A stretch of 20,000 bases of DNA from Neolecta irregularis DAH-3. Taxonomy: Eukaryota. The position numbers were made by a program, and so were the translations under genes. How positions within the stretch are numbered: the first letter of the stretch is position 1; each line of letters opens with the position of its first letter. Below are positions 1 through 20,000 of this stretch, in pieces. Location: assembly GCA_001929475.1 (NCBI GenBank), contig LXFE01000206.1, positions 50,369 through 70,368 on the forward strand, read 5' to 3'. The notes below the pieces were generated by a model, which was not told where the DNA came from, did not search any database, and saw only the letters and a program-made list of their open reading frames with translations.

Positions 1-1298
1 TGGTGTTTGCATTTCCTCGACTAGTTGTTGCAAAAACCACTTCGATCCAGTGCCGACATCTGCATTTGTGTTTTCTGTTGTAGACGTTCTAGACGACGAT
101 ATTCTAGCTTCCGGAATTTCAAGAGTATGGGAGATCATTCGAAGATCCTTGGCTTCTCTACACCGCGGTCTTTTGAATTTGCGAGATGGTTCTGCTGCTT
201 GGGAGGAAGACTCATGCACGGAGTCCATAATCTTGCGTTTCCTTGAAGAAGAAGGCCGGTCGGCTTCAAGTTTTGCTTCTTCAAACATCTTCCATGCATC
301 ATCTTGAACAACTTCTTCAGTGCTCTTCGGTAATGGTGGCGATTCGGTTGGAGTGGGAAGAACCGTATTGGTGGTGCTATAAAATCTTCTTCCCATATTG
401 CGCTCGCTAGCTTGAACACGAGCCTCCCAGATCCGCCTTTCCTGTTCCCTTTGGCGGCGTAGTTGTCGTGAGGCAGCCGTATCTTCTTGTGATTCTTCAA
501 AGTCTTCCAGTAGCATGACTCTAGCGAGCGCCCGATCTCGCATGATTTGCCAATGTTCACGTTCCAATCGAATAAAAGCAGCTCCGCGTGGGGGAGCTTC
601 CACTTGATTATGATTCAGTTGTCTTTGACGGTACTCTTCTATCTGCGCAGATTCGGCGTGCTGTTCAGCTCTTCTCTGAGCAGCACCCATATCAGTACAA
701 GCCGGACAGAACCAATTTAACGGATCGACATCCTCATGGATATTTAGGCAGTGAACGTGGTACGTATGTTCGCATTCCTCGCAAATTAAAATATCATCCT
801 CTTGTTCCCTTGTAAGTTGGCCACATTGATGACAACGTTGGGTCTGACGAAAAGCAGATGTATCAACGTTCTTTGGGATATCGCCAACAGGAAAGAAATA
901 ATCTATAAAGCCTGTGAACATCAGAATGAATATTTCCGCATTATGGATATTTACCGTGGACCACTTTCGATACATCAACACGCTGGAAGGCCTGACGACA
1001 CAAAGGGCAAGTATTGGCGACCTGACCACATCAGTTAGTGAAAGAATCATTCTAATGAGGACGATTACCATCAACCATTCCGACAAACAAGAAAGATGAA
1101 ACTATCCGGCCGGTCAGATAAGCCGACATGTACAGTAAAGGTGAATAATACCATATGAGGACAAGAATTTAAATGTGCAATTTCATGCGTTTCTACTGAA
1201 TTTATATTTCCGGATTCTTCTTCCGAGGAGATCGGCATTAAATAATCCAGTGTATTCATACATATAATACACTCATCTGGTATACGTGCAGACTCCAT
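1..1298 (-). CDS. RING and PHD finger protein (PHRF1/Asr1-like putative E3 ligase), 3' end runs off the window
   Basis: Exons 1298-1152, 1101-1069, 1021-955, 911-<1; GT-AG introns of 50, 47 and 43 nt. The spliced product has a RING-H2 (CIIC...CPHMFHLSCLSEWLMVANTCPLCR) followed by a PHD finger (CHQC...ILICEECEHTYHVHCL...WFCPAC). The frame stays open to position 1. Confidence 0.88.
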
Positions 1299-1377
1299 GA
1301 TTGTGGTATAGATAACGCAAGGGGACTGGGAAAGTTCGAAGGGTTGATAGATGGTGAGTAGGCGGGGGGGCTTCTGC

Positions 1378-1385
1378 TATTTATA
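1378..1385 (-). promoter_or_regulatory. TATA box (TATAAATA) upstream of the RING-PHD gene
   Basis: TATTTATA on the + strand reads TATAAATA on the - strand, about 80 nt upstream of the ATG at 1298. Confidence 0.5.
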
Positions 1386-1946
1386 CACCTTTGCACCCTA
1401 ATTTGCGGCGTTTGCACTACCCCTTTGGATCATAGGCAATACGCTTATTCTAGCTCTAGACTGAGATTCACTCCTTTATTGTTAAGAAAACTTCTATCAT
1501 TCAGTTCGATCCGAATTCAAGGAACCGTATGGATGGTTGGAATTGAGAATGACAAATCGGAGTTTTCCTTGTAAAACACCTTTGAAATATATGTTTTCAG
1601 CAGAATATGTTTGCCTCCTCATACTATGGATCTGCGGTAAAAGTTAACGCTGCGCAATGACTTTGCGGATCTATTTATAGCTGTTTACATTTGGGAGAAG
1701 GAGTGGTTCTCAAATGAAACTTTGTGAACATCGCTCCAGCTGTTCCCAGTGTTCAGCACAGTGAATACTGTTTATAATCCACTCGCTGATTTGGAATCTG
1801 TAGCTCTGTCGATAATGAAACCATGATCAAGTTAGCTGATCAAGGAAATCATCTCAAAGGTCTGATATCCAGGAAGAGACTGGACTTCGAAAGTGAATTC
1901 AGCGAGACATATTAATGCCACCACCACCACTACCTTCAATAACCCC

Positions 1947-3990
1947 ATGACAAAAAAGCTATCCGATCTTCTATCCCAGTTATCTCTTGCCAGATCAGCT
2001 GATAGTCATGAAAAAGTCCTTCAACTTGCCGAGTCAATTCTCGCACAAAAACCTGAGGACCAAGTAGCGCTAAAAGCAAAAGTTACCGCTTTGATCAAAT
2101 TGGATAAATATGAAGCAGCGATGCCTCTAACGGAACGCATATCGGGCCCAGCTGGGAAGCTCTTCAAAGGCTACTGCCTTTATCGACTGGGTAGAAGTGA
2201 GGACTTGGAAGCGATTGAAGGGCCAGGACGAGGTTTACTCCACGTCAAAGCTCAGATGGTATCGCCAAGGATGTTAAACGTAGACTCACAAGTAGGCATA
2301 CAAAGCCGAAAGCTTTGAAAAGGCATCTGCAATATACGCTCAATTGATAGCAGGAAAAGCCGAAGTATTTCTTTCTTATGAATTAATTATTAACCTTCAG
2401 GTTTCGAACGAAGACTCTGATCTTGCTATCAACTCAAAAGCAACTATTGCTAACCTGGCCTGGAATCACAAGTCAATCACGAAATTTCCAACTCTTTCGG
2501 AGCCATCAGTTAGTCATGAAGATCTCTTTAATCAAGCATGTCTGCACATCGCCCAAAACAGCTTCCAATCTGCAAGGGTGCTTCTTGATAAAGCTAAGGG
2601 TATGTATTATTATACTGGACTCTATCATTGACTTGGAGATCTGTGCCAGAGACTCGATTTCGATCTGTCTGACATGAAAACAGAACTAGCTCCCATCAAC
2701 TCACAAATTGCATATGTGAATCAGATTCTTGGCAGTCATGCAGAAAGCCTAGCCGGTTATGATGCAGTACTACAAGACGAGTGCATCTCTTTGAAGAACT
2801 TGAAACTTAGTGTATAGATCGTTAGACTCAACTACAGAAGCAATCATCAGTAACAACAAACTAGCATCACAAGGTTCAGAAAACCCATATCTCGCATTCC
2901 GGTTATTTGAGCGCGAAAAGACGACATTTCCAGATCTCAAACTCTCCTGTTTTCAGTCCCATCTTTTTCAAAGAAATGAACTTGCGGTCAAACTGCAAGC
3001 TGGACGAACTCGACTAGCGAAAAACGCAGCTAACAGATTTCAGCACTCGGAAGACATGGCCATGGTCATAAGCATCTTAAAGATGCATAAACCTTCACAA
3101 GCCATCAAATCTTTGGATCAAATTTTGGAAAAAGAACCTGGCAATATTTTTGTCGCTCTCGCGGCCATCCAGTTAAAATTACAATATAAAAAACGGATGA
3201 ACGCTGTCTCAACGCTGGAAAGACTATTGTGCACCCTCACAGATGACCAGAAATATATTCCCGGACTTGTGGGATTAGCCGTTGCATTGTACGACAAAAT
3301 TGGGAATAGAGTTGCTTCTCTAGATATTTTGGAAAAGGCGCGACGCTTTTGGGTCGGAAAAAATGTAAGCTCACTTGTATTTGAGATATGCATTAGCTGA
3401 TATTTTTCAAGTCAGGCGAGCATCTAGACCTGATTCAATATGCCGGACTTGTCAAACTAAATGAAGCGATTTCGTTCGGCAACAAAGAAGATGCCCAAGC
3501 TATCGCTTCGAATTTTAAATCACTAGCTAGACTCATCCCAGGCGATCAGCGTGCAATAGCAGGACTTGTTGCAGTATATTCATTTCTTGATCCTAAACGC
3601 ACTTTACAGTACGTCGAGGGATTACCGCCCGTTGAATCATTTACTCGGGATATAGATGTTGAAGAACTCGAAAAGGCTGGCGTACCTCTCAGCGAATCGC
3701 ATAAACGACCAGCCGAATCTTGTACTTTTGAATCTGAGAAGAAAAAGAAAAAGAAAAGAAAGCCATTGTTGCCCAAAAACCTTGATCCGTCAAAGGAAAT
3801 TGACCCGGAAAGATGGCTACCGAAGCGCGAACGAAGTTCTTATTATTCCAAGGGTAAGAAGACCAAACGAAATGGCCCGGGCGGAGCTACTCAAGGTGGA
3901 CCTGTTGAATCTTCAGGTTTACAGTTGGCTCCTTCTGTTGTATTGTCTGGAGGAAGCATTAAGAATAAGAAAAAAAAAGGACGGAAGTGA
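1947..3990 (+). CDS. SRP72: Signal recognition particle subunit SRP72
   Basis: Exons 1947-2258, 2296-2364, 2401-2599, 2639-2780, 2818-3364, 3412-3990 (615 aa). TPR-like N-terminus (ALKAKVTALIKLDKYEAA...FKGYCLYRLG) and the SRP72 RNA-binding signature KKKRKPLLPKNLDPSKEIDPERWLPKRERSSY. Confidence 0.95.
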
Positions 3991-4036
3991 GAGACTTGAT
4001 GAACATTGTTTATAATACAAAGACGTGCATAGTAGA

Positions 4037-4720
4037 TCAAAACAGAGTATCTTCGTCTCTTAGATATTCGCCGACATCTGCTTGATGAAATGCGGCGATT
4101 GCTGTAGGTTCAATTTTTCTAGAGTCTGCTGTTGATCGAGCAGTGACTCCAATTCCCTGGATATTAGTCAGTTTCTCGTATATATGTTACTAACCAATGG
4201 AGAATCATTCATGTTATAAATCACTACTCCTTGATGTTCAGGTGTGTCATCACTTATTCGCCCGATATGGGCTTTCAAGATGTGATTTCCATAGAGGAAA
4301 GGCATTTCTCCATTTGGTTTAACCCAAATCTTGTATTTTGCATAAGGTGATATCACATCAAGAGCTGTAATATGGATTTTGAACTTCCCACTCTTGGTGA
4401 ATTTACCAATACACGTTCCTAGTGAAAGAAGATTTGCTCGAGCAACGGCGGTTGCGACTTTCATGATGCGCTCGCTGTTATTAACTGGGTTCTGAAAGAG
4501 ACGCATACGAGACGTAGTATACGCGATCTTTCTGGAGACGGAAACAATGGGGATCATCTGGCCTATCGATAAGGTGGGTGATATTCCGTCCAATACTTTG
4601 GCATTAGATCGATATTAGGTAGACATACTATTGTGCAAGCTTTGTGAATAAAGTTTTGGTTTCTAAATTGTCAAATTATATCCCGAATAAACTCGAACCT
4701 TCTTCCGTCAAAGACCTCAT
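4037..4720 (-). CDS. NIP7: 60S ribosome biogenesis factor Nip7 (PUA domain)
   Basis: Exons 4720-4699, 4662-4629, 4595-4509, 4474-4195, 4156-4037 give 180 aa: [21 protein letters not shown]...[23 protein letters not shown]...[18 protein letters not shown]...[16 protein letters not shown]. Confidence 0.97.
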
Positions 4721-4818
4721 GGTGGTTGCAGTTATCTTACCTCTACAAAAAATATCTACCCGGAAAAAAATGTGTCGGGAGTCTTTCCACTTTGTAAACT
4801 CCACCATAAAAGAATCTT

Positions 4819-6497
4819 ATGACAACAGAAGATGAACTAATATCTCGCTCAATAGCGTCTGAAAATGTTATCCCGCCTGTTCAACAGCCTGAAGCGACTA
4901 CTTCTTCTCAGGGTCTACACGATGCCTCCATCAATTCCGGCTTTCCAGGCTCTACAAGCGAGGAATCCAAAAAACGAAAGCCCAGCGGTCGAGACAACTG
5001 GGTAAAAAACTGGGACCAGAAGAGAACAAAGAGAGAAGATTATGGCATTCCGAGAGAACCACGGCGACCAAAGAAAAAAGTCGCTTGTTTGATCGGATAC
5101 TGCGGAACTGGGTATCATGGGATGCAACTCAATCCCCCAAATCGAACAATCGAGGGGGATTTATTTGATGCCTTCGTTAAAGCTGGTGCGATTTCAAAAG
5201 ATAATTCCGACGATCCGAGGAAGGTGATCTTGCAATTACTGATAACAACATTAAACGTTTTAGTCTTCCTTACAAAGATCTGCCCGTACGGACAAAGGTG
5301 TACATGCCGCTGGGAATCTGATTTCACTCAAATTGATTGTTGAGGATGCTGACATTCTGGAAAAAATCAATTCTTATCTTCCAGCGACAATTCGACTGTG
5401 GGGCTTTACCCCATCAATCCGCTCATTCAATTGCCACACAAACTGCGATTCTCGAGTATATGAATATCTGTTACCTTCACACTCATTTCTTCCTCCAAGA
5501 CCAACCTCAACCTTTGCTCAGTTTATTATTTCACAAAACAAAGATGCCGGAAAACCGATTCAGAATTGGGGTGGACACGACACAAGTCAGTTCTGGGACC
5601 AGGTCGATGTAAAGATTCTTCAGATAAGTGAGGAAGAGATAGCAGCAGAAGAAGCGCGTATCCAGTCCGCTGTGGAAGAGCACGGAACACAAACCCATCA
5701 AGTCAATGCTAGAGAGCGGATAATTCGGAAGCTTGAAATGAAAGAGAAAAGGACCTTTCGCATAACCCCTGAACGAATGCAAATTGTTCGTGATGGTTTC
5801 TCGCAGTACCTGGGTTCGCATAATTTTCATAACTTCACCGTCGGGATGGAATATCGTAATGAAAGCGCCAGGAGATTTATGAAAAAGATTACTGTGTCTA
5901 TTTTATCCTATCAAGCTCTGACGATAGGTTTCTGATCCCCATAACATTGACGACACAGAATGGATTTCAGTCAAAATCCATGGGCAATCATTTATGCTCC
6001 ATCAAATTCGGAAAATGGTGGCCATGGTCGTCATGATAGTTCGTTCTGGTTGTCCTGAAAATCGAATTTCAGAAGCCTATAGGCCACCCAAGCTTGCTAT
6101 TCCAAAGGCACCGGGTCTCGGATTGCTTCTCGAGCGACCTATCTTCGAGGGATATAATAAAAAAGCAACTGATAACGGGCGAGAAAAGATCGACTTTGAT
6201 CAGCATGATGATCAAATAGAAGCCTTCAAGCAAAAGCATATTTACGATAAGATTTACGCGGAAGAAAAAAAGGAAAATATGTATGCCACTCGTTATATTT
6301 GGAGATCTGATTCTAGATTTCATATTTTTTTGTCTGGCCTAGATTCTTTCCCTGGATTTCCTTACTTGACCGCAAATGGGTTCCCAAGAACTATGGAAAC
6401 AAAAGCTGAAGAACTAACTCTGCCAGGAGCGGATGACGAAGAACAAGCCCAGGACGAGAGTGATTTGAAGAGACCCAGAGAAGAATTTGAAGGTTAA
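4819..6497 (+). CDS. PUS1: tRNA pseudouridine synthase 1 (TruA family)
   Basis: Exons 4819-5223, 5264-5893, 5928-6280, 6317-6497 (522 aa). Motifs [23 protein letters not shown] (catalytic Asp), [22 protein letters not shown] and [11 protein letters not shown]. Confidence 0.96.
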
Positions 6498-7374
6498 GAT
6501 TGAACCGAGTGATCCGAGGATTGTATTGTAAATCATAGAAAAACTAGGGTCAAATCAACAAACTGGGTTGACACCCCGTGACAGTCGCAGTCGGTCGCTA
6601 AAATATTTGCCACCTAATACTACCACAGTAGGGAAACCTCTCCTTTCAGGTCATGTTCAAAACAGCGCTGGCTTTTGCTGGATGTGGCATTAATCCGACA
6701 GCTTGAAAAGGGATCGTGACCCCAATTTATCATTGAAGAACTGTTAAACTGATTCGAATCTGTCGAAGCATCTATGCTTATTGGAATATATCAACACGGC
6801 TATCACGATTGGCAGAGAATATATTCTATCAAATCTCTGCAGATCCTTTATCTCCGAAAAGATGCGACGGCGGATATTACACAATTTAGGACTGAAGTTG
6901 TCCCTGACAAATGGTCATATTACATATCAGTATAAATCCCACGTGACTGTGGTCTCTTACCTTGCGATACATTACAATATTCCAACTGAATGGAGAATTC
7001 ACTGGACATTTGCCCAAATAGATAGGCCTGTTGAACTTGACTGAAGATAAGGGTGCAGGCTTTCATCTGATAACTGCGGAATTGAATTTATTCCAATATT
7101 TCTTGCACTTGTTTCAACGATTAATTCTTCATTTCTCGAGCAAGTATCATTATCCAGGTCCGCTTCCTTCTCTCGTTCACATGGAGCAAAGAGAATAATG
7201 CATTTTCCGACCTTCAGTTTGTCGACCGAATGGAAAATTAATTGGGAGTTGTTTGTCAGTCCGAGATATATGTTTATTTCCCCAGGTAATTTTAATGACC
7301 ACAAATAAAATTGATACTTTATAGTTGCATGAACCCTCTCAATTCCCAATACAAATACAATCCTCTTTCTCCAA

Positions 7375-8148
7375 TCAGAGACCCATTATTAATCCCGAAA
7401 TAAGAGTCAGACTGAGAAATAAGGGCCGGCGTAAACTAACAGATAGCGATGCAGTACTCTGTAGAGTCGGGTTGTCTTTCGATATTCCCTTTGAAGATCC
7501 AGCTTCGGGAGTAGCAGTAACCACGACTACCTTTGTAATCGTACGATGAGGATGTTGAAGATCGGGAACAGTGACCGTCTTGGTGATCACCTGTGATTGA
7601 GGTGCAGCTGTATCGCCATTGTTATCGTCATTCGTAGGGGCGCTCGGTTCAGTAATTGCAGGATTGTCATTGTTTTCGTTTGACGTTTTGTTGTCTTGAC
7701 CACCTTCGTGCCTTCCCGCAGATGAAACTTTATCGTCATTTAAACGGACGCTCGGTTCAATAGTGGGAAAACTGCCAATATTTTGGCTTGGCGATTTTTT
7801 TTCTTGGTTATCTTGATGCCTTCCCATTGTCGAATTATCTTGTCTCCTACCCAGACGAAAAAGTTTATCTATAACGACTTTATCTTGCATTTCATAATAT
7901 CGGACAGCTGCTTGAACATTTTCGAAGACACCTTCCTGATACTTTGGAGATATTTCTGTTAGGGCTTGATGTATCTTCAACGTCGAATCAGATAAATTAT
8001 TAGTTCTAGCTTCCCGTACGGCTTCAGGAGCCATATTGTCCACAATCAAAGAAGCCACATAGAGCTTAGCATATACGGTGAAGAGAAGTATCAACATAGT
8101 CGTCAAGAGAACCAAGAAAGGAGCTATCGAAGACGAAATTAAGATCAT
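7375..8148 (-). CDS. Orphan secreted/cell-surface protein, putatively GPI-anchored
   Basis: Uninterrupted ORF; the start is either the ATG at 8148 (MILISS) or at 8097 (MLILLF). Hydrophobic N-terminus, Asn/Asp/Ser/Thr-rich middle, Thr/Val-rich segments (VITKTVTVP, TITKVVVVTATP) and a terminal hydrophobic tail (RRPLFLSLTLISGLIMGL*). No family recognised. Confidence 0.7.
   Translation of the reverse strand: MILISSSIAPFLVLLTTMLILLFTVYAKLYVASLIVDNMAPEAVREARTNNLSDSTLKIHQALTEISPKYQEGVFENVQAAVRYYEMQDKVVIDKLFRLGRRQDNSTMGRHQDNQEKKSPSQNIGSFPTIEPSVRLNDDKVSSAGRHEGGQDNKTSNENNDNPAITEPSAPTNDDNNGDTAAPQSQVITKTVTVPDLQHPHRTITKVVVVTATPEAGSSKGISKDNPTLQSTASLSVSLRRPLFLSLTLISGLIMGL
7622..7826 (-). repeat. Degenerate internal tandem duplication (~108 nt / 36 aa period) in the orphan protein
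   Basis: TTATCGTCATT...CGCTCGGTTCA occurs at 7622 and at 7730. At protein level GRHQDNQEK...PTIEPSVRLNDD matches GRHEGGQDNKT...AITEPSAPTNDD. Confidence 0.7.
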
Positions 8149-8902
8149 ATATATGTATTGTTCAAAAGAGGCGAAGACCGTGGTCAAACCTTCCGCCACG
8201 TTCTAGGATACTAGGCGAGCTATATCTGTTACAAGAAAAGAGAAGACATAATTAGTCTGCTTGGCCTTGAATTTTTTTTAGATTTCTGCATCATATTGAT
8301 TGGGTCGAGACCATTGGACGCATCTACTTCTGTTTAATTCTTGGTAATACAAATATAACATGACACATAGGAGTTGCGCAAACAGACTGATACCTAACAT
8401 TTACAACTACCTCTCTTTCAAGCCTCGCTTAGATAACTCCAGGAGAGATCATGAATAGGATACATTTAAATATTCTATCAAGTATGTTGAAAATGTTGTC
8501 AAGCTTCGTTTCAATGACGTGCGACACACCTTGTGGTATTTTGAAACCGGAAGGATTTCAAACGAGGCTTCCTCGACAACCACCTAGAAATACCTTTTCT
8601 CCGATTCCGCTCCCAGTTTAAATTGCAATTCCCATCTGCCGGTCGCGATCCGTGCCGCCTTAGAAGGCTATTAACAGCAAATTGCCAGTGGATCATTTGT
8701 GTTCCGACAGCAGTCGTCAAGTTCGTTTTCTTTGACTCTAAAAGGGATTCTTTGCGTGATCAGTGTCTTTGAACAGGACCGCAATAGCCACACTCACACC
8801 ATTGTTCCCGGTGTTCAAACCAGTCGAGATAATTTTCTTTTAAGAACGACTTGAGAGCCCGGAGGGCTTCAAACCCGTCTTGGACGGTGGCCCTCCCAAG
8901 GA

Positions 8903-11104
8903 ATGCCATCCATGCCATCGCTCTTTCATCACCCTCAGCACCCGTTTACAGAGGATCATATGGCTGGTGTCGATCACTCCAAGTTTACAGACAAACTAGA
9001 AAATACCGCTCTGGACGAAAAATTGTCTGAACAGCGCCACTTATGGACGGAACCAATGGTGCGGCCAAAGCCTCTTGATCCGATATCTTCGCCACGAAGG
9101 GCCTTTTCAGCCCCATGTTCAACTAGTCTGGGAAAGTCACAGAGCGTCTTTTCATTTGGTATGCTTTCATTTCTTTAAAAAGAAATTAAATGCGCAGATG
9201 CTTTCCCTTTCACGCGTGCACAAAGTCCTTGTGTGCAATTAGTAAAACCACTACATCGAGCAAAGGATGAAGAATACCCTTTGTTTGGTGATCAAATGAA
9301 TCATTTGATGGATATTCTTGATGAAGATTTGAACTCAGAAACGCTTTTCTCTTCTTGCACTACTCCTGAAATTCACCAATCCTTCAATAGAAATCAAACA
9401 AATGGGCGGCAAAGGTCGCTAGTCTCGATATTTTCTGATGAAACCCCTTCAAAGACGACTGTAGAAACTTGCGAAAGCCTTTTACGAAAGTCTAAAAGTA
9501 TTACTCGTATGGAAAATAACCAAAGCTCTGAAGAAAACGCGGTCTGTTTATCACCCTTCGGATTGTCACACCCACCACGGTTTCGCTTTGCTAAGGCTAT
9601 TTTGCATGGACCCACACCCGCTTCTGCATCATCGTCGTTGGTGGTTCGTACGTGGTTCGAAAGTATTCAGCAACGGCTTCCGCCAATATTTGATCGACTG
9701 GGTCATACTGTCCTCTCAACTGGAACCCCACATTGCCTTATTGAGCTGCGAACTCTAAAGTGTTATGGTCTTGAGAAGTGGATCATCCCAACAAAGGAGC
9801 CCGAAGTTGTGGATGGGTTGGAAAGTCTCGGTCGTATACTGCTGGCTGTTTTACTTCCTAATGCTCCAACTCTTGGTGCTTCGAAGAATTACATTGATGC
9901 CAAAGTCGCAAAACTGATGATCGAATTCGTCGTCGTTGAGGACTTGTCTCTTCCAAATTTTGAAGGTCATCACGTTGGGTGTCTCCTTGGGAACTCAGCT
10001 TTCGCTAAATTTCGATGCGAAATCTCGTTTGTCCGACGTAGCTTCCGCATCGAGTCATGTAAAGTCGACGTTCCTTTTGCTCGCTCCCAGCCAGCTCGAA
10101 ACAATTTGCCTAAGAGAATCATTGAAAGTGTGACTCCGACAGAACTTCCTGAAGCCGAAGTGGTTCTTCTGAAAAGGCAACCAAAGCCCCCGATTGAAAC
10201 GGAGCCTCTGGAAGGCGATGCTGATGTTCATTCTTCCGATTTGTTCAATCCTGCAATTGATTTGGATGGGTCGGCCTGTATTGCTGATCAATCAATGGAA
10301 GCTACGCAATTTGAGGACAGCCACTCACTGAGTCCCAGCCCTGTCGAATATGATTCGAGCTGTTATCAGAATATTGGGTCAACAATGTCCAATCGCTCTG
10401 TAACCTCTCTAGAAGCAACGACTCGATGTACATCGCCAGAGTCTTTGCCTGACACATTAAATCGCGAATCGACTGTGATGTTGAAACCTTGCAAAGCCTC
10501 CTATTCATTACTGCCCACGTCCCAACCACAAAGGAAAGATCCTGAAAGACGCGTCACTTTTCAGCAGTCTTTGCAAGATAGCGATCTACTTGCGGATCCT
10601 CAAACTTCTTCGAAGTATCAATCTTGTAGATCAATTCCCGAAACTAAGCTGGTCAAATCTCTCAAATCGCCTGCATCAGTATACAAGCCCTTAAAGTCTA
10701 CAGCTACAATCTTTATTCCACGATCAACCAGTTCTTCCATTGCACATACTGAGACTCAACACAATTCCCAATCAACATCACCTCTCTCCGGCGCTACAAG
10801 TCCTTGGATAAAATCTGCCACTACAAGTAGAGAGAAATCACCAACAGTAGCTGAAGTTGTCGCCGGTAAATGTCGGCTTAAGTCTGCTGAAAACGAGGTC
10901 TCTCAACGAAGAGCAATGAAGGTTCTTAAATCTCATCGTTCAAAGAACCCTCTAGAAGTTGAACGACCAGACACGCAACAGCCTGAGCCAAAAATTACTG
11001 GGCCTGGGTTGAAGGGTTTGAAAAGTATGAACTCGTTGCCACGAAATGTCGGGGAATATAAACCGCGCTCAAAAAGCATTGCGGGGGCGTTTCATTGGAT
11101 CTAA
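8903..11104 (+). CDS. Uncharacterised fungal protein (~720 aa) with a central retropepsin-like pseudo-protease domain and a PAM2-like motif
   Basis: Exons 8903-9158 and 9198-11104 joined by a 39-nt GTATGC...CAG intron that restores the frame. Ordered core at ~9640-10085 flanked by Ser/Pro-rich low-complexity regions; C-terminus RRAMKVLKS...AGAFHWI. The CDS is well supported; the domain calls are inference. Confidence 0.8.
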
Positions 11105-11316
11105 ATTGATTTCCTTTCTTTACGCGCTGCAGAAATTGCTCTGCAATTTTGCAGGCCTGTTTTCTTCACTTTCCGGTTTGGAAATTTGAATTGGGAGAAA
11201 ATGGAAGATCTTGATGAGTGGGAAGTAGGAAGGGTGATTGTTCTTTTTCCATTTCATAGCCTATTCAAGAAATAAGACAGAAATCGATGGCTCGGTGGAT
11301 AAGCCTTTCAAAATAT

Positions 11317-12066
11317 TCATATCTTGGACCCCAAATACAATGCTTGCAGCGACTCTCGGGTAGCATCTTTGGTTTCTTTAACTAGCTTTACGACCTGTTT
11401 GAACTCTTGTATGTTTGCGTCGCCCATTAATTCGTACAACTACTTGTCAGTTGATTAAATCACAAAGACATGCGAAAGATTCACTGGTACTGATCTTTGC
11501 ACCTGCTTGTCTCATTCTTGCAATTGCGATAGGGATTTCCTCTCGATTACAGGAGCTTACTGCATCTGATATAACATAAACCTGATGTCCCCGTGCCAGT
11601 AGGTCCAGGGTTGTTTGCAACACGCAAACATGAGACTCAATGCCGGTTATTGCAACACTACTTTTGGGCTGTAATGCTCTCTACTATCATTGATATCAGG
11701 AATATGTGATAGTTACGAACTTCAAGCTCTGGAGTATGCATACTGAACAAGGTTTTATCGAGCTTGAGTTTTGCATTAGAAATATCGAGTTCGGAACAGA
11801 TTTCTCCCAATGCCTTGTTGTTTTGTGTGGTTACGTAAACAGGTACATTGAGGATTTTTGATGCCTGCAACATTTTAGATGCACTGGAATCGAATTAGAC
11901 ACTGACTGGAGCACAGATGTAAACACATTTTCAAGATATGATCGAACGCATAGATAGCGGGGCGGAACTTTTCTTGTTGATCACAAATAAAACTGTTTCA
12001 TGAGTTCAATGGTTTCCAAAAGAGATACAGCGCTGGTCGTGCGAGTCTCAATACCGTGGATGTCAT
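11317..12066 (-). CDS. Isochorismatase-domain protein (ISOC1/ISOC2-like cysteine hydrolase)
   Basis: Exons 12066-12029, 11992-11927, 11883-11721, 11680-11474, 11439-11317 (198 aa). Motifs FICDQQEKFRPAI, VYVTTQ, DKTLFSM, ITGIESHVCVLQTTLDLL, DAVSSCN and TSESFLYELMGDA. Confidence 0.93.
11440..11473 (-). other. GC-AG intron (34 nt) in the isochorismatase gene
   Basis: GCATGT...CTGACAAGTAG; removal joins SESF to LYELMGDA in frame. Confidence 0.85.
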
Positions 12067-12523
12067 TAATGTTTGACAAGTGTGGAGGCGCAATGTCCAA
12101 TTCCGTTCTTAACAGCCATTTGACCAACCATTAAGGTGTGATTGAGATTTATCTGTATATTATGAAGATAATTTATCACTTTAATTGGGCGATTTCTAGA
12201 TGTAGTAGTCAAGAGAATGATGAAAACTGTGTTATCGTCCCATTCCCTGTAGTTGAACTTATCGGCAGTCATTTGACCCCACCATGGAGCTTAATTTTGG
12301 ATATACATAGCGATCCATTGTTGGTCGAATTTCCTTTTCACGTTATATCAGAATATAACGATGGGATACTTTGTCAGAACCACTCACATCGTGTTCCAAA
12401 CAAAGAAAACAGCACAACTCTCAAACTCTCAATCACTCCAAACTCTATATTACACGTTCTACACTTTTCCCTATCAACCATAGCTTCTGTTCCGTTTCCA
12501 AAACCCTAGTTTCCAGATAGATT

Positions 12524-14465
12524 ATGTCCGGCAAGTTCGTCAGAGCTTCAAAATTCCGTAAAATAATTCTTATTCCTCACATTCTCGCTAAGCGTAAATA
12601 GGCCATGTATTCGCTCAACCAAGCAAACGAGTATCCCCAAAGGTTAATGCCTCCTATCTCACATTTCCCAGGAACAATGCTACGATAACGTCAAAATTAC
12701 AAGAAATGCCTGGGACTCAAACTTGATTCAAGTATCTTCCTGCCAAATATAGAGACCCAACAATTAAGTGCAACTCATCCTACCTTTCAATCAATTGGAA
12801 TATCAACAGCGGGGGATCATTCGGAGTAATCCCCCTGAACGAGACGGGAAAAATACCGGAGAGTATTCCTCTTTTTCAGGGTCATACTGCTCCTGTGTTG
12901 GATACCGATTGGTCGCCTTTTATGGATACATTGGTGGCATCAGGATCTGAGGATGCAAAGGTAATGCGAGCCCATTCTGTAGACTTAGCTATAGATTTTC
13001 CTTTGGCAAGTTCCAGATGACTTCACTATATTTGACAACGTGTTTGAAGAAGTAAGGCCCATGGCGAAGTTGACTGGGCATTCGCGGCATGACTATATAT
13101 TTCGTCATAATCTCATTTATTTTAGGAAAGTAGGATTCGTTCAGTTCCATCCCACTGCGAATAACGTCCTCGCAAGTGCATCAACAGATGGTGTCAAATT
13201 CTGGGATATCGAAAAGGGAGTTGATAATATCACACTTAAACACCAAGACATCATTCAGTCAATGTCATTTAACCGTAATGGGTCGCTCCTAGTTACGACC
13301 TGCCGCGATAAGATGATCAGAATATTCGATCCACGAGCACAGATTTCTCCAGTTCAAGAAGCTAAAGGCCACGAAGGAGCGAAAAACTCAAGAGTTGTAT
13401 GGTTGGGAGACTTGGACCGAATTGCGACGACGGGGTTTGGAAAATATAGCGGTCGACAACTTGGCTTATTTGATACTACTGCATTAGGAAAAGGACCGAT
13501 TAGCCATGATTTCATCGAATTAGATTCATCTTCAGGGATTACTATGCCTTTCTGGGATCCGGACACAAAGATTCTTTACCTGGCTGGAAAAGGGTGTGCT
13601 TACTAATTGTAAGAGACACATTAATGAAATATAGAGACGGAAACATCCGCTATTACGAACTGGATAACGACGAATTCTGCTACCTCGCAGACTACAAATC
13701 TACCGATCCTCAGAGAGGAATGGCTTTCATGCCAAAGAGATCGCTGGCGGTATCTTGGTTCAGCCATCAATGACTAACTTTAGATCCATGAAAACGAAAT
13801 CGCAAGAGCCTATAAATCCTCCAAAGATGTACTCATTGAACCAATCCGCTTCTATGTTCCGCGTAGGGTAACATTTGTATAACCTCGCGTAGATACTAAA
13901 AGTTAGTCTGAAACGTACCAAGACGATATTTATCCAGACACTCTCAGTGACGAGCCATCTTTGACGGCGGGTGAATGGTTTGCGGGGAAAACGGCCGATC
14001 CCATCCTTGTTTCTCTCGAACAGGTTTACGAGGATGGATTATCTGGAAGGCCTGCTGCTAAATCTGCCTGCTTCACTCCAAGCATTGTTGCTCAAATACC
14101 GCGACATAATTCCTTTGGCCAGCCAAGCAACGAGAAAGCTGCTCAGGCACAGGCGTCTAGCCCAGTGGAAATTACGGCAAATAAGGTCTCCCGTAACGAC
14201 AATGTCTCTGGGCCCGCTAATGTACAATATTGCTTTAAAAAGTTGTGAGTTGACTATACAGGAGCCATATGTGTCTGTTGATGTGCAGAAATTGACAGAA
14301 ATGATACGAAAACAGGAAGGTTCGATATCTGCTCATGCAAAAAAGATATCTTCACTAGAAGACCGGCTCGCAGATAAGGATGCGGCGATCAAGGATCTGA
14401 GGGTACAAGTTGCACAACTTGTCGAAGCATTTACAGAGCTTGAACGGGGTGGAGTAAATGTTTGA
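12524..14465 (+). CDS. CRN1: Coronin (WD40 actin-binding protein)
   Basis: Exons 12524-12557, 12602-12630, 12672-12731, 12769-12960, 12995-13086, 13126-13593, 13635-13749, 13784-13867, 13907-14221, 14262-14465 (530 aa). Motifs MSGKFVRASKFRHVF, GHTAPVLDTDWSPF, GHEGAKNSRVVW, LAGKGDGNIRYYE, VPRRSETYQDDIYP, plus a C-terminal coiled coil. Confidence 0.97.
13087..13125 (+). other. GC-AG intron (39 nt, in frame, no stop) in coronin
   Basis: GCATGA...TTTTAG; removal restores the conserved WD40 motif GHSRKVG. Confidence 0.85.
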
Positions 14466-14591
14466 TGGCTGATTTGATCAATTTCTTATTTCTGGTCCAC
14501 GTGACTACATTGTGAAGTTTTGTTATTGTTTACTTTAGCCTAACTTTGAACTTTGCCCATTTGACTGTCTTCCAACTACCTACTAGCTAAG

Positions 14592-16536
14592 ATGAATCCA
14601 TGGAACCGTAAGATCAAGACGTATGGCAAAGAAAAAAGAAGAGAGCGATCGCACTTTGCATGGGATTTTAGTTCTCCCAAGGAAAATAATGATAATGACA
14701 CCAGAAGCGCGAATACAATTATAACTAATAAAACGCCCGTGGATAATGCTTCATCGAAGATGGCGGTCCATCAGCATACAGTCGTCACTCCAAGTAAACA
14801 TGGGAAAAAGACCCTATTTATTAAAAAGACTGTTCGAGATATCATCACGTTCGATAAAGAGAATCCAGGGACGAATCGTCTGTCTGGAGTTTCCAGAAAG
14901 CGTCCAGCACTAACCACGAAACTATGTTCAACGGAGAATCTGCCCGTAAAGCGAGAGATGAAAAGAACGGGTTCTGAGATCAACGAAACCAAACAGGCGA
15001 ATATTTTATGCCCGTCACCTATTGAATCCCCCAAAGTTTCTGTTTCTTCACAGTCGCCCATATCTCGTGCCAAACGGGATTCTGACACAGAAGTCTCATC
15101 CACTCAGGAAGATATCCCGGAAACACCATCCTCATTATCGTCAAGGTCGGAAAGTCTACCCCTTTTGTCGTCAGCACCCGGTACACCTTTGAGAGCTGGA
15201 GTGGAAAAATCACAATGCTCGATAATAGAACCTTTATCTCTATCTACAGAACCTATAGCGGAAGATCTTGCAATTGACCTTGATGCCCTCCTCGCTTTCT
15301 CCCTCGATAAACAAGTTCACCGGTTTTCTGACTATGTCAACATATTCACAGAAAAGATCACCAAGCTTGGTGAAGCGTCGTACAGCGAAGTATTCCTTCT
15401 CCCCGCGACAAAGACTCGAGAGACACAGGTGCTGAAAATAATTCCTTTCGGGGACAACGAGCACAGTTGTAGGCTTGAGGATGTTCTCCAGGAAGTTAGA
15501 CTGTCGAAATGTATGAAGGATGTAGAGGGATTCATTAAATTCGATGGGTACATTGCTTTGAAATCGAATGAGCTTATTCATAGAATGTCCGTCGTTCAAG
15601 GGATGTATCCCGATTTGCTACTCAGAGCTTGGGACGAGTGGGTCAATGGTCATGAATCCTTTAATGAGAGGCCAGGTATACCTTTTTTCGAAATGATGTT
15701 GAGGCAGAGCCTTTTATATGCAAGATCAGATGTTTATCATAATTTTCCTCGAACACGGTGGACGAGACTTGGAAAACTTTAAAGTTCGGACTTGGGTCGA
15801 GGCTGCGAATATCTTCTGGTCGGTAGTTGAGATTTGTGCGCGCGGTGAGGAAGAACGAGAATTTGAGGCATGCTCTTCCAATGCACTTGAGTAATAATTT
15901 AGCATCGAGATTTACACTGGGGCAACATTTTGATCAAGGAAGGTAATGATTCTACAGAACAGCTTTTCGCAAATCTCGACTTGAACGAGAAGAAATCGAC
16001 AGATGCATCTAGGCAAGCAACGAATAGGAAACTAGTTATAACTTTGATCGACTACACACTCTCTAGGGCCCGATGTGATGACCATATCGGCTCGATAGCT
16101 TATCATCCCATGGCTGATCAAGGACTATTTAAAGCTCAAGGTTTCAGTACTCATTGACCAATGGTTGACAAGGGCAGGTGAATACCAATTCGACATTTAT
16201 CGTTTCATGAATGACCACGTTTCTCAATTTGCCTCTGATTCTAATCCATGGAAAAGCTTCATGCCAAAGACTACAATTTATTGGTTGCACTATCTTTCAG
16301 ACAAATTATTATTCAACAAGGGCTTATCGAGACCGATCAACCGTGTGACTGCTCGTTCGAAAAGAAAGGTTTCCAGCCAAGAAGACCGGGAAGCATACGA
16401 TATCCTGCAGACTGTCTATACATCGATTGACCCAAAAAAGAAGAAATTTAATCGTGATGGGGAAGAAAAGTTTATCGATGCACGAAGCCTGTTTAAATGG
16501 GGGAGGGACTGCAAATTCTTTATTCAAGAGTTGTAG
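14592..16536 (+). CDS. Haspin-family protein kinase (histone H3-T3 kinase; Hrk1/Alk-like)
   Basis: Exons 14592-15547, 15584-15675, 15710-15867, 15903-16140, 16178-16536 (600 aa). Motifs KLGEASYSEVF, VLKIIPF, FEHRDLHWGNIL, the haspin-specific IDYTLSR (DYT in place of DFG), GEYQFDIYRFM and YWLHYL; long disordered N-terminus. Confidence 0.95.
15868..15902 (+). other. GC-AG intron (35 nt) splitting the haspin catalytic loop
   Basis: GCATGC...TAATTTAG; removal gives FE|HRDLHWGN. Confidence 0.88.
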
Positions 16537-16653
16537 TTTATATATTATGGGGACAGGGATTAGATGCATCAAAATTTGTTTATTGAAATGACATCTCCAA
16601 AGTGATGTCCTGTATTATGGTATGCCCTGTGAACGCCCTGTAGTTGAAAAAGC

Positions 16654-17470
16654 TCAAAAGATGAATGGAATCCGAGTAGGAACCGTTGTCCTGAATCGGA
16701 TGTATTCATCCCCGAAAAACGTGACGAGATATTCCTCTTCGCCTACCTTTGGTCAGCGTCTAGTTGATAAACACCGGATCTTTCACGTTGTATCCTTTCG
16801 TTAAAGAATCTCCAAAGCACAATAATAAATATCACTGTTGAAATAGGATTCAAGAGAAATATTTGGGTTCCGACGCCCCACCAGAAAAATCCAAAGTAAG
16901 AAGGATGTCTGGAGAATTTGTAGACCCCAGTCGTAACCAATTCGTGATCTCTTGCCTTTTGAAAGGCTAGCCGATGAGAAAAGTTATGACCTGCGTGGAC
17001 CATCGCCAGTGTTCGAAAGGACTGACCAATTAAAACTGCTCCGAGACCTCGTTGTTAGCAAGGGTAAAGGGAATATTGTACCCAGAATTGACAATATGGT
17101 GTTTGATTTTATCCAGGGGGTGAATCTGGCTTCAAGTATAGCTTCAGCTACTGAGACAAGTTGAGCAGTGTTATATGCGTTTCCATTGTTGAGCAGAAAC
17201 GCTAATTATCAATTCCTTTCGAAAAAGAAACGGACAATCAGAGGAAGCCTTTAGCGGGTTATATTTCGCAGTGACCCAATACTCTAGAAAATGAAACGTT
17301 GATAAAGCAAAAATGAAGAGCGGCAGTTGAATGAATCCTGTTTTTCCGAGGAACCAAGCAAGACATGATGAGATTCCAGCTACAAGTCCCAGAGAAGCCG
17401 CAATAATGGCAATATGGGCTGCATCAGACGCCACTCGGTCAGGCTGAGTTGATTTGGTGTTCAAGCTCAT
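16654..17470 (-). CDS. STE14: Protein-S-isoprenylcysteine O-methyltransferase (ICMT; Ste14/Mam4)
   Basis: Exons 17470-17236, 17201-17082, 17047-16787, 16742-16654 (234 aa). Motifs FHFLEYWVTAKYNP, SFLLNNG, AGHNFSH, HELVTTGVYKFSRHPSYFGFFWW, RIQREEEYLVTFFGDEY and PTRIPFI. Confidence 0.96.
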
Positions 17471-17591
17471 GGTGCGTTTCTGGGCGAATCAGGGAATCCG
17501 CGATAGATGGTGGCTTTGAAAATTCTTGGATGAGACTTTGGTGTTTGGGCTATGAATGGTAAAGTGTCACGCTGAACCAGATGCCAGATCT

Positions 17592-17615
17592 GGGAGGGGA
17601 CGGGCGGGAGGAGGG
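17592..17615 (+). other. Putative G-quadruplex-forming motif upstream of STE14
   Basis: GGGAGGGGACGGGCGGG(AGGAGGG): four G3+ runs with 1-2 nt loops. Confidence 0.55.
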
Positions 17616-17714
17616 CCATGTGCAAGAGTATATTTGCGCTAGTTGAAATATCGGAACACGGGTTGAAACCGATAGCGGTGAACGATGAAATTGAGACTGA
17701 TAAAACCAGTCTTA

Positions 17715-19579
17715 TCAAGACGAGATATATTTCCTGATATTCTGTAGGCAATCATCGCTAATGTTCGTTTGATCAAGGACATCATTTCCCAAGGCAACAA
17801 GATCATTTTTCAAGCTTTTTTCAAGAATTTTTGAATGACGAGGTAATTTTTCCCAAATCTTGAAAGATAGAAGAACAAGATTGTGTTTTAATTGAAACTG
17901 GGGGTTTTGCGCATACTGCCCGACCACGAAACGAGCAGCGCTAATCCATTCATCTCTAGAAATATCGCCTTGTTCAACGATCAGGGATAGAATGCGAACT
18001 TGGCATTCCGCTAGATCCAGGCTATCCGCGTTAGAAACTAGCGATTTCTCCAAATCATTCCAAATGACATTCCACCCATTTTCTTTTAAAAATATTTCTC
18101 GGCCGTTCTTGGCCATTATGAGGCCCTCGATACCACTGCATACCCATCCACGATAATCGATACCTTGATCAAGACCCTCATTAAACACATCCAAGAGTAT
18201 ATCCATAATCCCCAAAGCTTGACTCCGCAATCCCTCATCTTCTCTCAGCCAATAGGTTAAACTTCGAATCGAAGAAATGGTAACGACGTCTCGAATTATT
18301 CCCGACGGGGTATCCCATTCGATTTGTACTGACTCTGTGTCCAAGCTAGCGGCTCGTCGAGCTGCGTCCCATCTATCTCGGAGAAACTCGATTGTATCGC
18401 CAAACGCGTTATTTAAATTTTCCCCGAGTTTGACAAGACTATCTGGGTCGAAAAAGTCAATGTCCATTTCGTCGTCGGTGAGATATTGTATTGCAGAGGT
18501 CAAGATATCGTAGTCTGCAGCTAGACGATTCGCGAGTGTGGGGTATTGTGAAAGACGATTTGACAGAGATGGTAAAGTTGATCTGATATTTACTGTGGAG
18601 AGGGATACAGTGAGTAGAGCAAATTTCTTATGCTCGGGCGTTACAGGCGACTTGAATAGAAACAAGGGACCCTGTTGGCGAAGGATGATAGAAATGATGG
18701 AGGAGAGGTGTGAGCGCGTATTTCCGTCTAATCCATCAGCAACCTGCCATTGAATAAAACTACCTGGGTGGTGTAAAGTGATTTGGGCAAGAGTAGTGTA
18801 TAAAGAGTCGGTCCATTGAGAAGCACTATACATCCATAACTAATAATCAGCAATATTCGAGTAGAAATAACCTCGGCATCGATACGATTCAAGATATCTG
18901 CAAGAAATTCAAGAATCAGGGTACTGGGATTTACTTGGAGACATTTTTCGATTATGTATCCGAGTTTTCCCTTTAGCCGGTCGGCGTATTCTGGGATCGT
19001 TGAGCTGTTCAGGATAATGTAGGTCATAGTCTGCAAGCCGGTACTCGGCTCATCTAATCGGTCAACACCCGCTAGAATACCGCTCTGTAATATATTATCC
19101 CAAAACCTTTCCAAACGATCGTGTTGAAAGTAAACGGGCACTGCTTCGGGTGAAGTAGCCCCTCGAACCAGAATTTCCAAAACAGTTGACCTGATCTTTC
19201 GTTAGTGTCTGCGATTCTATAAAATACTTGTTCTTTATGCAATAGGTCTAGCAATTTTGGTATACGTTCAGACAATTGTTTACTAGTTGCGATTTTCTCA
19301 AAGCCAGCAAACGAAAAGAGGATATTTACAGCGATTTGTACAAGGTCGTCGGAATTTTGTTCGTCATTATATTTTTGGTCTTTGGTCAGATGGGCGGGAG
19401 CGGTAGATACCGCAAGATAAAAGTTTGTCGATAAATGCAAAATCAAGGTTATCCCAGCATTCCCAAGTAAGTGAAGGATTACGAGTAAGAAGAGTGGGTA
19501 AAATGGCCAGAGCTACAAATTTGCTGGTATGGTCGGGCTTGTTCATTAAAGCAATACATTTCTGGAGGTCTGGGTTCAT
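17715..19579 (-). CDS. Neurochondrin-family (DUF1941-like) ARM-repeat protein
   Basis: Exons 19579-19411, 19379-19228, 19195-18872, 18839-17715 (589 aa); introns of 31, 32 and 32 nt. N-terminal KPDHTSKFVALAILPTLL...CWDNLDFAFIDKLL and internal DTIEFLRDRWD and SIRSLTYWLREDE match my recollection of fungal neurochondrin motifs. Confidence 0.82.
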
Positions 19580-19604
19580 GGGAAGGATCGAACCACACGA
19601 CAAC

Positions 19605-20000
19605 ATGGTGATCATCCCTCCGCATTCCCTGCTCAATTGCTAGAACCATTCCGGTGGAGCGACAGGTCTTCCAGGAGACTGGGAAATTCGTCATTCGCGG
19701 TCCAAGAACCTTCCGTACTTTTACAACGTTGAAACCAAGGAATCGAAATGGGAGCCTCCTCCCGGGTCTGACACGGCTCTTCTTGAAGAATACATAAAGA
19801 CCCATTTTCCTGATGCGACGGGAAAGACACAGATCGTGAGGGCAAGTCATTTATTGGTAAAGCATAAAGACAGCCGGCGACCTAGTTCATGGAAACAAGT
19901 ACGTAATTATCCAATTCCTACTTATTCAGGACAACATCACTCGGACTAAAGAAGAAGCGTTGGGCCTGATTCAAGAATACCAAGCCGAAATTAACGGCGG
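19605..20000 (+). CDS. ESS1: Peptidyl-prolyl cis-trans isomerase Ess1/Pin1 (WW + parvulin), 3' end runs off the window
   Basis: Exons 19605-19607 (ATG only), 19644-19898, 19930->20000. WW domain GLPGDWEIRHSRSKNLPYFYNVETKESKWEPP and parvulin [31 protein letters not shown]. Confidence 0.95.

Follow-up and report, generated by a model that had tools for sequence, protein, structure and literature searches.

Short introns with relaxed 5' splice sites, and a probable role for branch-point distance, in Neolecta irregularis

Background

A fungal reference for the introns described here is Schizosaccharomyces pombe, with a median intron length of 56 nucleotides (nt; PMC2483917) and about 5057 introns tabulated together with RNA sequencing (RNA-seq) read counts in the supplement of PMC8163875; the shortest mean intron among 61 species is likewise 56 bp (PMC3033335). 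In Saccharomycotina, position +5 of the 5' splice site (the donor) varies little, and a preference for U at +4 goes together with few introns and with the loss of METTL16 and SNRNP27K (PMC10581693, PMC11732430). We analysed the introns of Neolecta irregularis DAH-3 in a stretch of 20,000 nt (contig LXFE01000206.1, positions 50,369 to 70,368, forward strand; this whole stretch is called the window) and in a wider sample of the same assembly, and found them to be very short, with only a minority of donors carrying G at +5 (+5G).

The genome paper of this species gives, in a supplementary table, a mean intron of 42 bp and 4.3 introns per gene, so the shortness of the introns is already in print; the word 'intron' is absent from its main text, and 6.6 Gb of RNA was sequenced. 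A full-text literature search with little coverage of subscription journals returned no account of donor degeneracy in Neolecta.

Introns of the window

The introns of the window were inferred gene by gene from the genomic DNA, in 11 genes spanning 912-19929. There are 41 of them, each of 31-50 nt, and 15 carry +5G (Wilson 95% interval 0.24-0.52), namely 12 of the 38 GT donors and all three GC donors. These counts, reached with gene models built for the 11 genes, are exactly those of a preliminary description of the window. At the remaining positions, A was found at +3 in 28 donors, T at +4 in 22, G at +4 in none and G at -1 in 22. The seven donors that had been quoted as examples (GTGCAT, GTGATC, GTGAAA, GTACAA, GTTTCA, GTTATT and GTAAAA) are all present, the four donors with a pyrimidine at +3 that were said to keep +5G (GTTCGA, GTTAGT, GTTCGT and GTCCGT) do so, and GTTTCA and GTTATT, both without +5G, each follow an exonic AG as described. 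Removal of 37 of the 41 introns is needed for a frame that is open and free of stops, and excision of the GT/GC...AG segments restores conserved proteins, as is expected of U2-type introns.

For each intron, every frame-keeping GT/GC...AG pair within 45 nt was listed as an alternative, and alternatives were scored against homologue profiles that excluded the organism's own proteins (after a length filter, 104 of 119 homologues for coronin, 84 of 119 for isochorismatase and 97 of 148 for haspin). The called junction was the best one in 16 of the 17 introns of these three genes, by 2.6-35.5 bits. Eleven of these 16 homology-fixed junctions lack +5G, and three of the five that have it are GC donors. 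Of the 26 window donors that lack +5G, 16 offer no GT with +5G within 45 nt that would keep the frame open; for five such a GT exists, but its use costs 22-47 bits against the homologue profiles. The +5G alternatives of five donors lie outside the profiled genes, which places the ceiling for +5G in the window at 20 of 41. The gene model used for the wider sample recovers 39 of the 41 window donors.

Donor profile across 17 contigs

The assembly comprises 14.18 Mb in 4542 contigs. We sampled 69 stretches on 17 large contigs (696,252 bases including the window, about 5% of the assembly) and called introns with a self-trained, two-strand gene model that yields intron posteriors, allows introns of 22-400 nt and permits AG acceptors only. 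With a flat donor model, which uses the dinucleotide only, the frequency of +5G was 0.34 when posterior-weighted and 0.36 in the 1039 introns with a posterior of at least 0.9. With a learned donor model it was 0.40 (522 of 1304 introns; interval 0.37-0.43), and it lay between 0.33 and 0.48 for every one of the 17 contigs. In a planted control, G was placed at 92% of the called sites and the whole procedure, training included, was repeated; at the same posterior threshold +5G came back as 0.90 under the flat and 0.93 under the learned model, the posterior-weighted flat figure being lower (0.79). The wider donor table and length histogram repeat the pattern of the window, which is thus genuine and common to all the contigs sampled.

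The 1304 introns have a median length of 37 nt (5th-95th percentile 33-43; 99% of at most 50; nine longer than 60), a composition of about 39% GC and a density of 3.4 per kb of coding sequence. Like the donors, their acceptors are loose, with TAG in 591, CAG in 444, AAG in 232 and GAG in 37. The donor frequencies are 0.58 for G at -1, 0.75 for A at +3, 0.39 for G at +5 and 0.45 for T at +6. At +4, T reaches 0.51, C 0.23 and A 0.185, with an intron background of about 0.40 for T; the non-G bases at +5 are A (0.23), C (0.17) and T (0.21). Against a uniform background, the information amounts to 0.91 bits at +3, 0.32 at +4, 0.08 at +5 and 0.18 at +6, and both +4 and +6 are close to the intron background. 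This profile is unlike the typical ascomycete donor (GTRAGT/GTATGT, with +5G in the large majority). At +7 to +12, G accounts for 13% of bases, compared with 39-40% at +5, so that +5G stands at about three times the intron background and the signal is relaxed, not lost. The earlier wording, 'strongly relaxed' donors with 'loss of +5G', is thus borne out for the relaxation, with 36-40% in 1039-1304 introns, and goes too far in speaking of loss.

Donor dinucleotides are GT in 1226 introns, GC in 76 (5.8%) and GA in two. One GA-AG intron of 37 nt (L001:864-900, plus strand; G|GAATGT, posterior 0.82) lies in a gene that we take to be Rpa43-like, and five further GA donor candidates with a posterior of at least 0.5 occur in the sample. 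U12-type introns are marked by an RTATCCTT donor, a strong TCCTTAAC branch and genes for U11 and U12. GTATCC makes up 22 of the 1304 donors, as expected from the degenerate profile.

A rough estimate for S. pombe was drawn from the supplement of PMC8163875, in which each donor appears in two columns. The words GTAAG, GTATG and GTACG occur there 8800 times, and subtraction of composition-matched words (GATAG 465, GATTG 848 and an assumed 250 for GTACG) leaves about 3600 GTA[ATC]G donors, or roughly 72%, so that +5G by this word count is at about 72% or more; ten of the 13 readable rows carry it. In Neolecta, GTA[ATC]G accounts for 304 of 1304 donors (23%). The comparison with S. pombe that had been proposed therefore gives 36-40% +5G in Neolecta against an estimated 72% or more.

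Compensation between donor positions

Among the 1226 GT donors, +5G was found in 80 of the 316 that follow an exonic AG compared with 395 of 910 otherwise (p=1e-8), in 244 of 722 after G at -1 compared with 231 of 504 without it (p=2e-5), and in 328 of 930 with A at +3 compared with 147 of 296 without it (p=1e-5). GC donors, 74 of 76 of which have A at +3, carry +5G in 45 of 76 cases compared with 477 of 1228 in the rest (p=6e-4). An exonic AG precedes 54 of the 90 donors that have a pyrimidine at +3 and no +5G, compared with 149 of the 602 with A at +3 and no +5G. The compensation that the preliminary description saw in single donors is hence upheld statistically for exonic AG, +3 and GC donors, as a tendency and not as a rule, and its pattern is the known U5/U6 trade-off set out in PMC8163875 and PMC11732430. 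Donors with +5G do not cluster by gene (p=0.37). A stronger branch point offsetting a missing +5G was also considered and is unsupported (p=0.11).

Branch-point geometry and choice of the donor

In 1295 introns, the distance from +1 to the branch A is 25-36 nt in 98% and falls below 25 nt in only nine, though the model allowed far shorter distances; the distance from the branch A to the 3' end is 7-12 nt in 98%. A YTRAY-like branch motif, which matches GUAGUA of U2, was assigned by the model to about 98% of introns; its consensus is loose, with CTRAY in 36-40%. For 1282 introns, every GT or GC within 200 nt was ranked as a possible donor. The called donor came first in 1075 (84%) when length and dinucleotide were used, in 722 (56%) with donor sequence alone and in 1257 (98%) with length and sequence together; the ranking is partly circular, since length had already entered into the intron calls. 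Exonic GTs that lie out of frame and whose use would make an intron no longer than 46 nt are rarer (189 of 5670, or 33 per 1000) than those further upstream (1424 of 29912, or 48 per 1000; p=1e-6); the out-of-frame controls GA, GC, AT and CT are flat, and the GT depletion is also seen under flat-donor calls. The branch spacing and the donor picking support the earlier suggestion that introns are defined largely by length and geometry.

Our preferred reading, to which we give a probability of roughly 0.62, is that an ordinary U2-type spliceosome recognises these introns of about 37 nt across the intron and picks G|GTA in a donor-to-branch window of 25-36 nt, the cut site probably being found mainly by its distance from the branch point. 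The branch point would be set by U2 together with the 3' factors, and U1, then U5/U6, would take whichever GT (sometimes GC, rarely GA) falls in the narrow reachable window. As this window would hold only one or two candidates, we propose that splicing came to depend little on pairing of the U6 ACAGA box at +4 to +6. Support for weak introns would come from +5G or else from AG at exon positions -2/-1, which U1 and U5 loop 1 contact, and decoy GTs near the end of the exon would be purged by selection. Relaxed selection, once length carried information, would probably account for the weakness of the signal itself. Lengths, donor profile, compensation, geometry and the canonical small nuclear RNA (snRNA) genes described below are read directly from the DNA, and from them we infer that position selects the donor.

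Several points weigh against this reading. The junctions are predicted from DNA, and the 17 contigs were picked for holding the window, U1 or a kinase and are not a random sample. The 7-nt floor between branch point and 3' end was imposed by the gene model, and the donor ranking has the circularity already mentioned. Depletion of GT decoys near donors occurs in other genomes too. At least two GTs fall in the 31-47 nt window in 543 of the 1304 introns, so that length alone is insufficient. No trend of +5G with intron length or donor-branch distance was found, and donors that face an out-of-frame exonic rival carry +5G no more often than the others (74 of 179, compared with 484 of 1221), although a strict ruler might predict that they would.

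Two further candidate signals were rejected. A raw link between rival GTs and +5G arose for the most part because +5G,+6T is itself a GT, and it is gone when only out-of-frame exonic rivals are used, and extended pairing of U6 with the intron at +7 to +16 gave 2.75 against 2.78 matches, equal to shifted controls. In human cells, RED acts on introns whose donor and branch point lie close together; a whole-genome search of the fragmented assembly gave no candidate for RED_N (PF07808).

Splicing machinery and alternative explanations

Of the other explanations, a change in the spliceosomal proteins survives best, and we consider it unlikely. Lineage-specific Prp8 substitutions would loosen the check on the helix of U6 ACAGA and donor, so that +5G, +4 and even +2U would matter less, the shortness of the introns being a parallel development. 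Among 301 columns with conservation of 90% or more across 120 homologues, the intact Prp8 piece (human 1307-1676) is off consensus at 16; the departures of the homologues themselves have a median of 1 and a maximum of 10. Six of the 16 are common to S. pombe, and five (A1431I, Y1432M, P1496Q, H1563N and S1588N) occur in none of 119-120 aligned homologues and are absent from S. pombe. H1563 lies seven residues from D1556, and mutation of the latter in Caenorhabditis elegans (D1549N) favours GT-only donors (PMC9723624); the GC and GA donors of Neolecta are in line with such a change. However, coronin, taken as a control, is as diverged (10 of 155 near-invariant columns changed, 6.5%, against 5.3% in Prp8), so the substitutions are a lead only and may reflect a branch length common to the lineage; the altered spliceosomal proofreading raised in the preliminary description is likewise no more than possible. 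A literature search for yeast prp8 suppressor alleles close to the changed sites returned no paper. The homologues are the best matches to partial proteins and include few recognisable ascomycetes, PRP8 is in pieces and legible only in part as an intact copy, and the T524/R540 region is visible only in two broken copies. Moreover, alignment to the human chains indicates that SNRNP27K M141, Snu66 H734, Prp8 D1556 and Prp8 H1580, all tied to donor fidelity (PMC9723624), have been kept. Similarly unlikely is a natural spliceosome in which the U6 ACAGA helix no longer governs donor choice and a ruler of about 25-36 nt does, one that Prp8 H1563N, Y1432M, A1431I, P1496Q and S1588N enable, with U1, U6, METTL16 and SNRNP27K unchanged. 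If true, such a Prp8-enabled ruler would also account for the GC/GA donors and for the preference for U at +4.

PRP8 is scattered over small contigs, with 21 matches to PROCN and four to the U6-binding domain. Its pieces lie on contigs C2538 (L021), C4303 (L022) and C2568 (L023) of the assembly (G000) and on further small ones, including C3840, C279, C1829, C2227, C1830, C3910 and C1228 (L116-L122). Many copies carry stops, frameshifts and internal deletions, their pairwise DNA identity is 81-98%, and at least two broken copies retain an intron. The assembly seems to have been broken up here by pseudogene fragments of PRP8 that spread at the DNA level in a burst.

Tolerance of sloppy splicing is quite unlikely in our assessment. 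Weak donors would have accumulated by drift in a small population and would be spliced inefficiently or imprecisely, with errors cleared by nonsense-mediated decay and no special geometry. Retention at 42-49% of introns in Pneumocystis, an intron-dense relative (PMC4764891), and the tendency of intron-rich, short-intron lineages to weak signals (PMC2483917) are consistent with it, as are the loose branch consensus and the lack of +5G clustering within genes. But the sharp length window, the 25-nt floor and the depletion of decoy GTs show selection on position, and the exon/intron compensation shows that donors are held above a minimum strength. As to how the weak signal arose, this explanation overlaps with recognition by distance.

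The preliminary description had also suggested a modified U1 or U6, and a variant or differently modified snRNA reading these donors is highly improbable. Model searches, in which 48 of 1107 and 41 of 209 candidates were scored, found one U1 gene with an intact 5' ACUUACCUG (43.7 bits, below the Rfam cut-off of 69.5) and one U6 gene with ACAGAGA. Two copies of U2, both with GUAGUA, one U5 gene with loop 1 GCCUUUUAC and one U4 gene are also present. The same short introns are present in protein-coding genes adjoining the snRNA loci, and these loci therefore belong to Neolecta. DNA searches of the assembly found no second U1 or U6, and neither gene has a compensatory base change (cf. U6 ACUGA in C. 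merolae). METTL16 is intact with its NPPF motif, and genes for U1C and Luc7, for which inspection had been proposed, are present along with those for Snu66, Brr2 and SNRNP27K. With canonical pairing sequences in U1, U2, U5 and U6 and these proteins present, modified snRNAs are unsupported; nor is one alternative base favoured at +5, or pairing extended to upstream U6. What speaks for such a variant is A at +4 in 18.5% of donors against 50% in S. pombe (PMC8163875), as expected of a U6 lacking N6-methyladenosine (m6A), and the fact that diverged copies could escape among 4542 contigs given the number of candidates scored.

The U6 gene is interrupted by a 50-nt GTAAGT...AG intron (L001:318-367, minus strand) directly before the AGC triad. 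The donor of this intron fits the consensus perfectly, and few messenger RNA introns of Neolecta are as long. The U6 gene of S. pombe is also interrupted next to the AGC triad (PMC5855946).

Finally, misplaced junctions hiding consensus-like donors can hardly be the explanation given the homology-fixed junctions, the recovery of the planted +5G and the agreement of all contigs, even if the calls were made on DNA, two window calls are weak and five donors have an unscored +5G alternative.

Gene models of the window

Table 1. Introns inferred in the window, by gene. Posterior, gene-model posterior; bits, score against homologue profiles.
Intron	Position	Strand	Length (nt)	Donor	Remarks
RING-PHD 1	1102..1151	-	50	GTATTA	needed by frame; posterior 0.04, weakest call
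RING-PHD 2	1022..1068	-	47	GTAATC	posterior 0.61
RING-PHD 3	912..954	-	43	GTAAAT	posterior 0.85
SRP72 1	2259..2295	+	37	GTATCG	posterior 1.0; gene named by Pfam
SRP72 2	2365..2400	+	36	GTATTT	in frame, retention possible; posterior 0.99
SRP72 3	2600..2638	+	39	GTATGT (+5G)	3' end GAG
SRP72 4	2781..2817	+	37	GTGCAT	no +5G GT alternative; posterior 1.0
SRP72 5	3365..3396	+		GTAAGC (+5G)	acceptor 3396, possibly 3411
Nip7 1	4663..4698	-	36	GTTCGA (+5G)	gene named by Pfam
Nip7 2	4596..4628	-	33	GTATGT (+5G)	
Nip7 3	4475..4508	-	34	GTATGC (+5G)	
Nip7 4	4157..4194	-	38	GTTAGT (+5G)	
tRNA pseudouridine synthase (Pus1-like) 1	5224..5263	+	40	GTGATC	posterior 1.0; Pfam
Pus1-like 2	5894..5927	+	34	GTGTCT	
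Pus1-like 3	6281..6316	+	36	GTATGC (+5G)	retention possible; posterior 0.9
720-aa gene	9159..9197	+	39	GTATGC (+5G)	
Isochorismatase-domain 1	11993..12028	-	36	GTATCT	best by 5.2 bits
Isochorismatase-domain 2	11884..11926	-	43	GTGTTT	best by 8.3 bits; GTTCGA alternative 22.6 worse
Isochorismatase-domain 3	11681..11720	-	40	GTTCGT (+5G)	best by 2.6 bits
Isochorismatase-domain 4	11440..11473	-	34	GCATGT (+5G)	GC donor; best by 35.5 bits
Coronin 1	12558..12601	+	44	GTAAAA	best by 17.9 bits
Coronin 2	12631..12671	+	41	GTATCC	7.5 bits
Coronin 3	12732..12768	+	37	GTATCT	23.6 bits
Coronin 4	12961..12994	+	34	GTAATG	6.3 bits
Coronin 5	13087..13125	+	39	GCATGA (+5G)	GC donor; 9.9 bits; retention 18.5 worse
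Coronin 6	13594..13634	+	41	GTGTGC (+5G)	5.2 bits
Coronin 7	13750..13783	+	34	GTATCT	6.8 bits
Coronin 8	13868..13906	+	39	GTAACA	8.6 bits
Coronin 9	14222..14261	+	40	GTACAA	homology undecided; matches public model P0001; posterior 1.0
Haspin 1	15548..15583	+	36	GTACAT	retention 15.4 bits worse
Haspin 2	15676..15709	+	34	GTATAC	3' end GAG; 8.1 bits
Haspin 3	15868..15902	+	35	GCATGC (+5G)	GC donor; 21.4 bits
Haspin 4	16141..16177	+	37	GTTTCA	after exonic AG; 4.4 bits
ICMT (Ste14-like) 1	17202..17235	-	34	GTCCGT (+5G)	zero alternatives; Pfam ICMT
ICMT 2	17048..17081	-	34	GTACAA	3' end GAG
ICMT 3	16743..16786	-	44	GTGAAA	posterior 0
Neurochondrin-like 1	19380..19410	-	31	GTATCT	gene by Pfam
Neurochondrin-like 2	19196..19227	-	32	GTATTT	
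Neurochondrin-like 3	18840..18871	-	32	GTTATT	after exonic AG
Possible 42nd intron	18728..18763	-	36	GTAGTT	no +5G; in frame; posterior 0.9; not required by frame
WW-domain (Pin1-like) 1	19608..19643	+	36	GTGATC	immediately 3' of ATG
Pin1-like 2	19899..19929	+	31	GTACGT (+5G)	

The PHD domain of the RING-PHD gene is a Pfam match, and its RING part is presumed, as is the Pin1/Ess1-like identity of the WW-domain gene. For the third ICMT intron, the gene model favours a 32-nt rival with GTGTTT at 16774, likewise without +5G, and the GTGAAA choice preserves what we take to be the RIxxEExxL motif of ICMT. The 720-aa gene (8903-11104, plus strand) has one intron and a 634-codon exon and found no match in a Pfam search, nor did an open reading frame of 275 codons at 7375-8400 (minus strand), which has hydrophobic ends, a low-complexity middle and no clean start or intron at its 5' end. 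The neurochondrin-like gene (start 19579, minus strand) and the Pin1-like gene (19605, plus strand) stand head to head, with ATGs about 25 bases apart if the starts are correct.

Public protein models P0001 (coronin) and P0241 (isochorismatase, 166 aa, shortened) each miss one GC-AG intron: P0001 retains that of coronin at 13087-13125, and P0241 misses that of isochorismatase at 11440-11473. Gene predictors thus misread the Neolecta genome, in that both models compared overlook a GC-AG intron.

Comparison with known systems

Neolecta shows, in a fungus near the model organism S. pombe, to what extent a donor signal can shrink when length carries information, and the branch point is still present, which makes the geometry measurable. 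It shares with S. pombe the subphylum, the presence of METTL16, an interrupted U6 gene and an exonic AAG/U5 contact offsetting weak U6 pairing (PMC8163875), and differs from it in a median intron of 37 instead of 56 nt and in A at +4 (18.5% instead of 50%; PMC8163875, PMC2483917). The specific Prp8 substitutions supplied here are testable in S. pombe.

A fungal control was sought in metagenomes, and the four loci obtained (38-44% identity to Saitoella coronin) were not recognisably fungal and were left unused. The donor consensus of Pneumocystis is loose. Our literature search yielded no donor frequencies for it, and if its donors were equally relaxed, the trait would be shared and not specific to Neolecta. 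Pneumocystis is likewise an intron-dense member of the Taphrinomycotina, with 4842-5289 introns compared with 4202 for Neolecta in 1211 orthologues (PMC7940399, PMC4764891).

The U5-type and U6-type donor classes described in PMC10581693 and PMC11732430 resemble what is seen here in the anticorrelation of exon end with +3/+5 and in U1 and U6 that stay invariant despite a shifted donor. In contrast to the +4U switch of Saccharomycotina, however, Neolecta is intron-rich, has kept METTL16 and SNRNP27K, prefers U over A at +4 and has a collapsed +5. Neolecta is therefore an exception to the link, reported in these papers, between +4U and absence of the two genes.

There is also a likeness to Paramecium tetraurelia, the nucleomorph of Bigelowiella natans and the dicyemids, which have very short introns of tight length at high density and donors of about GT(A) (PMC2483917). 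The introns of these lineages measure 19-25 nt, are 70-88% AT and, according to the same source, are without a branch-point signature, whereas those of Neolecta, an ascomycete, measure about 37 nt, have kept some +5G, use GC donors in about 6% of cases and show a clear YTRAY branch motif whose distances are fixed. Having kept its branch point, Neolecta fails one defining feature of the group with short introns and degenerate signals. Overall, by analogy, Neolecta appears to work like the short-intron, GT(A)-donor regime of Paramecium, the Bigelowiella nucleomorph and dicyemids, with the branch point kept.

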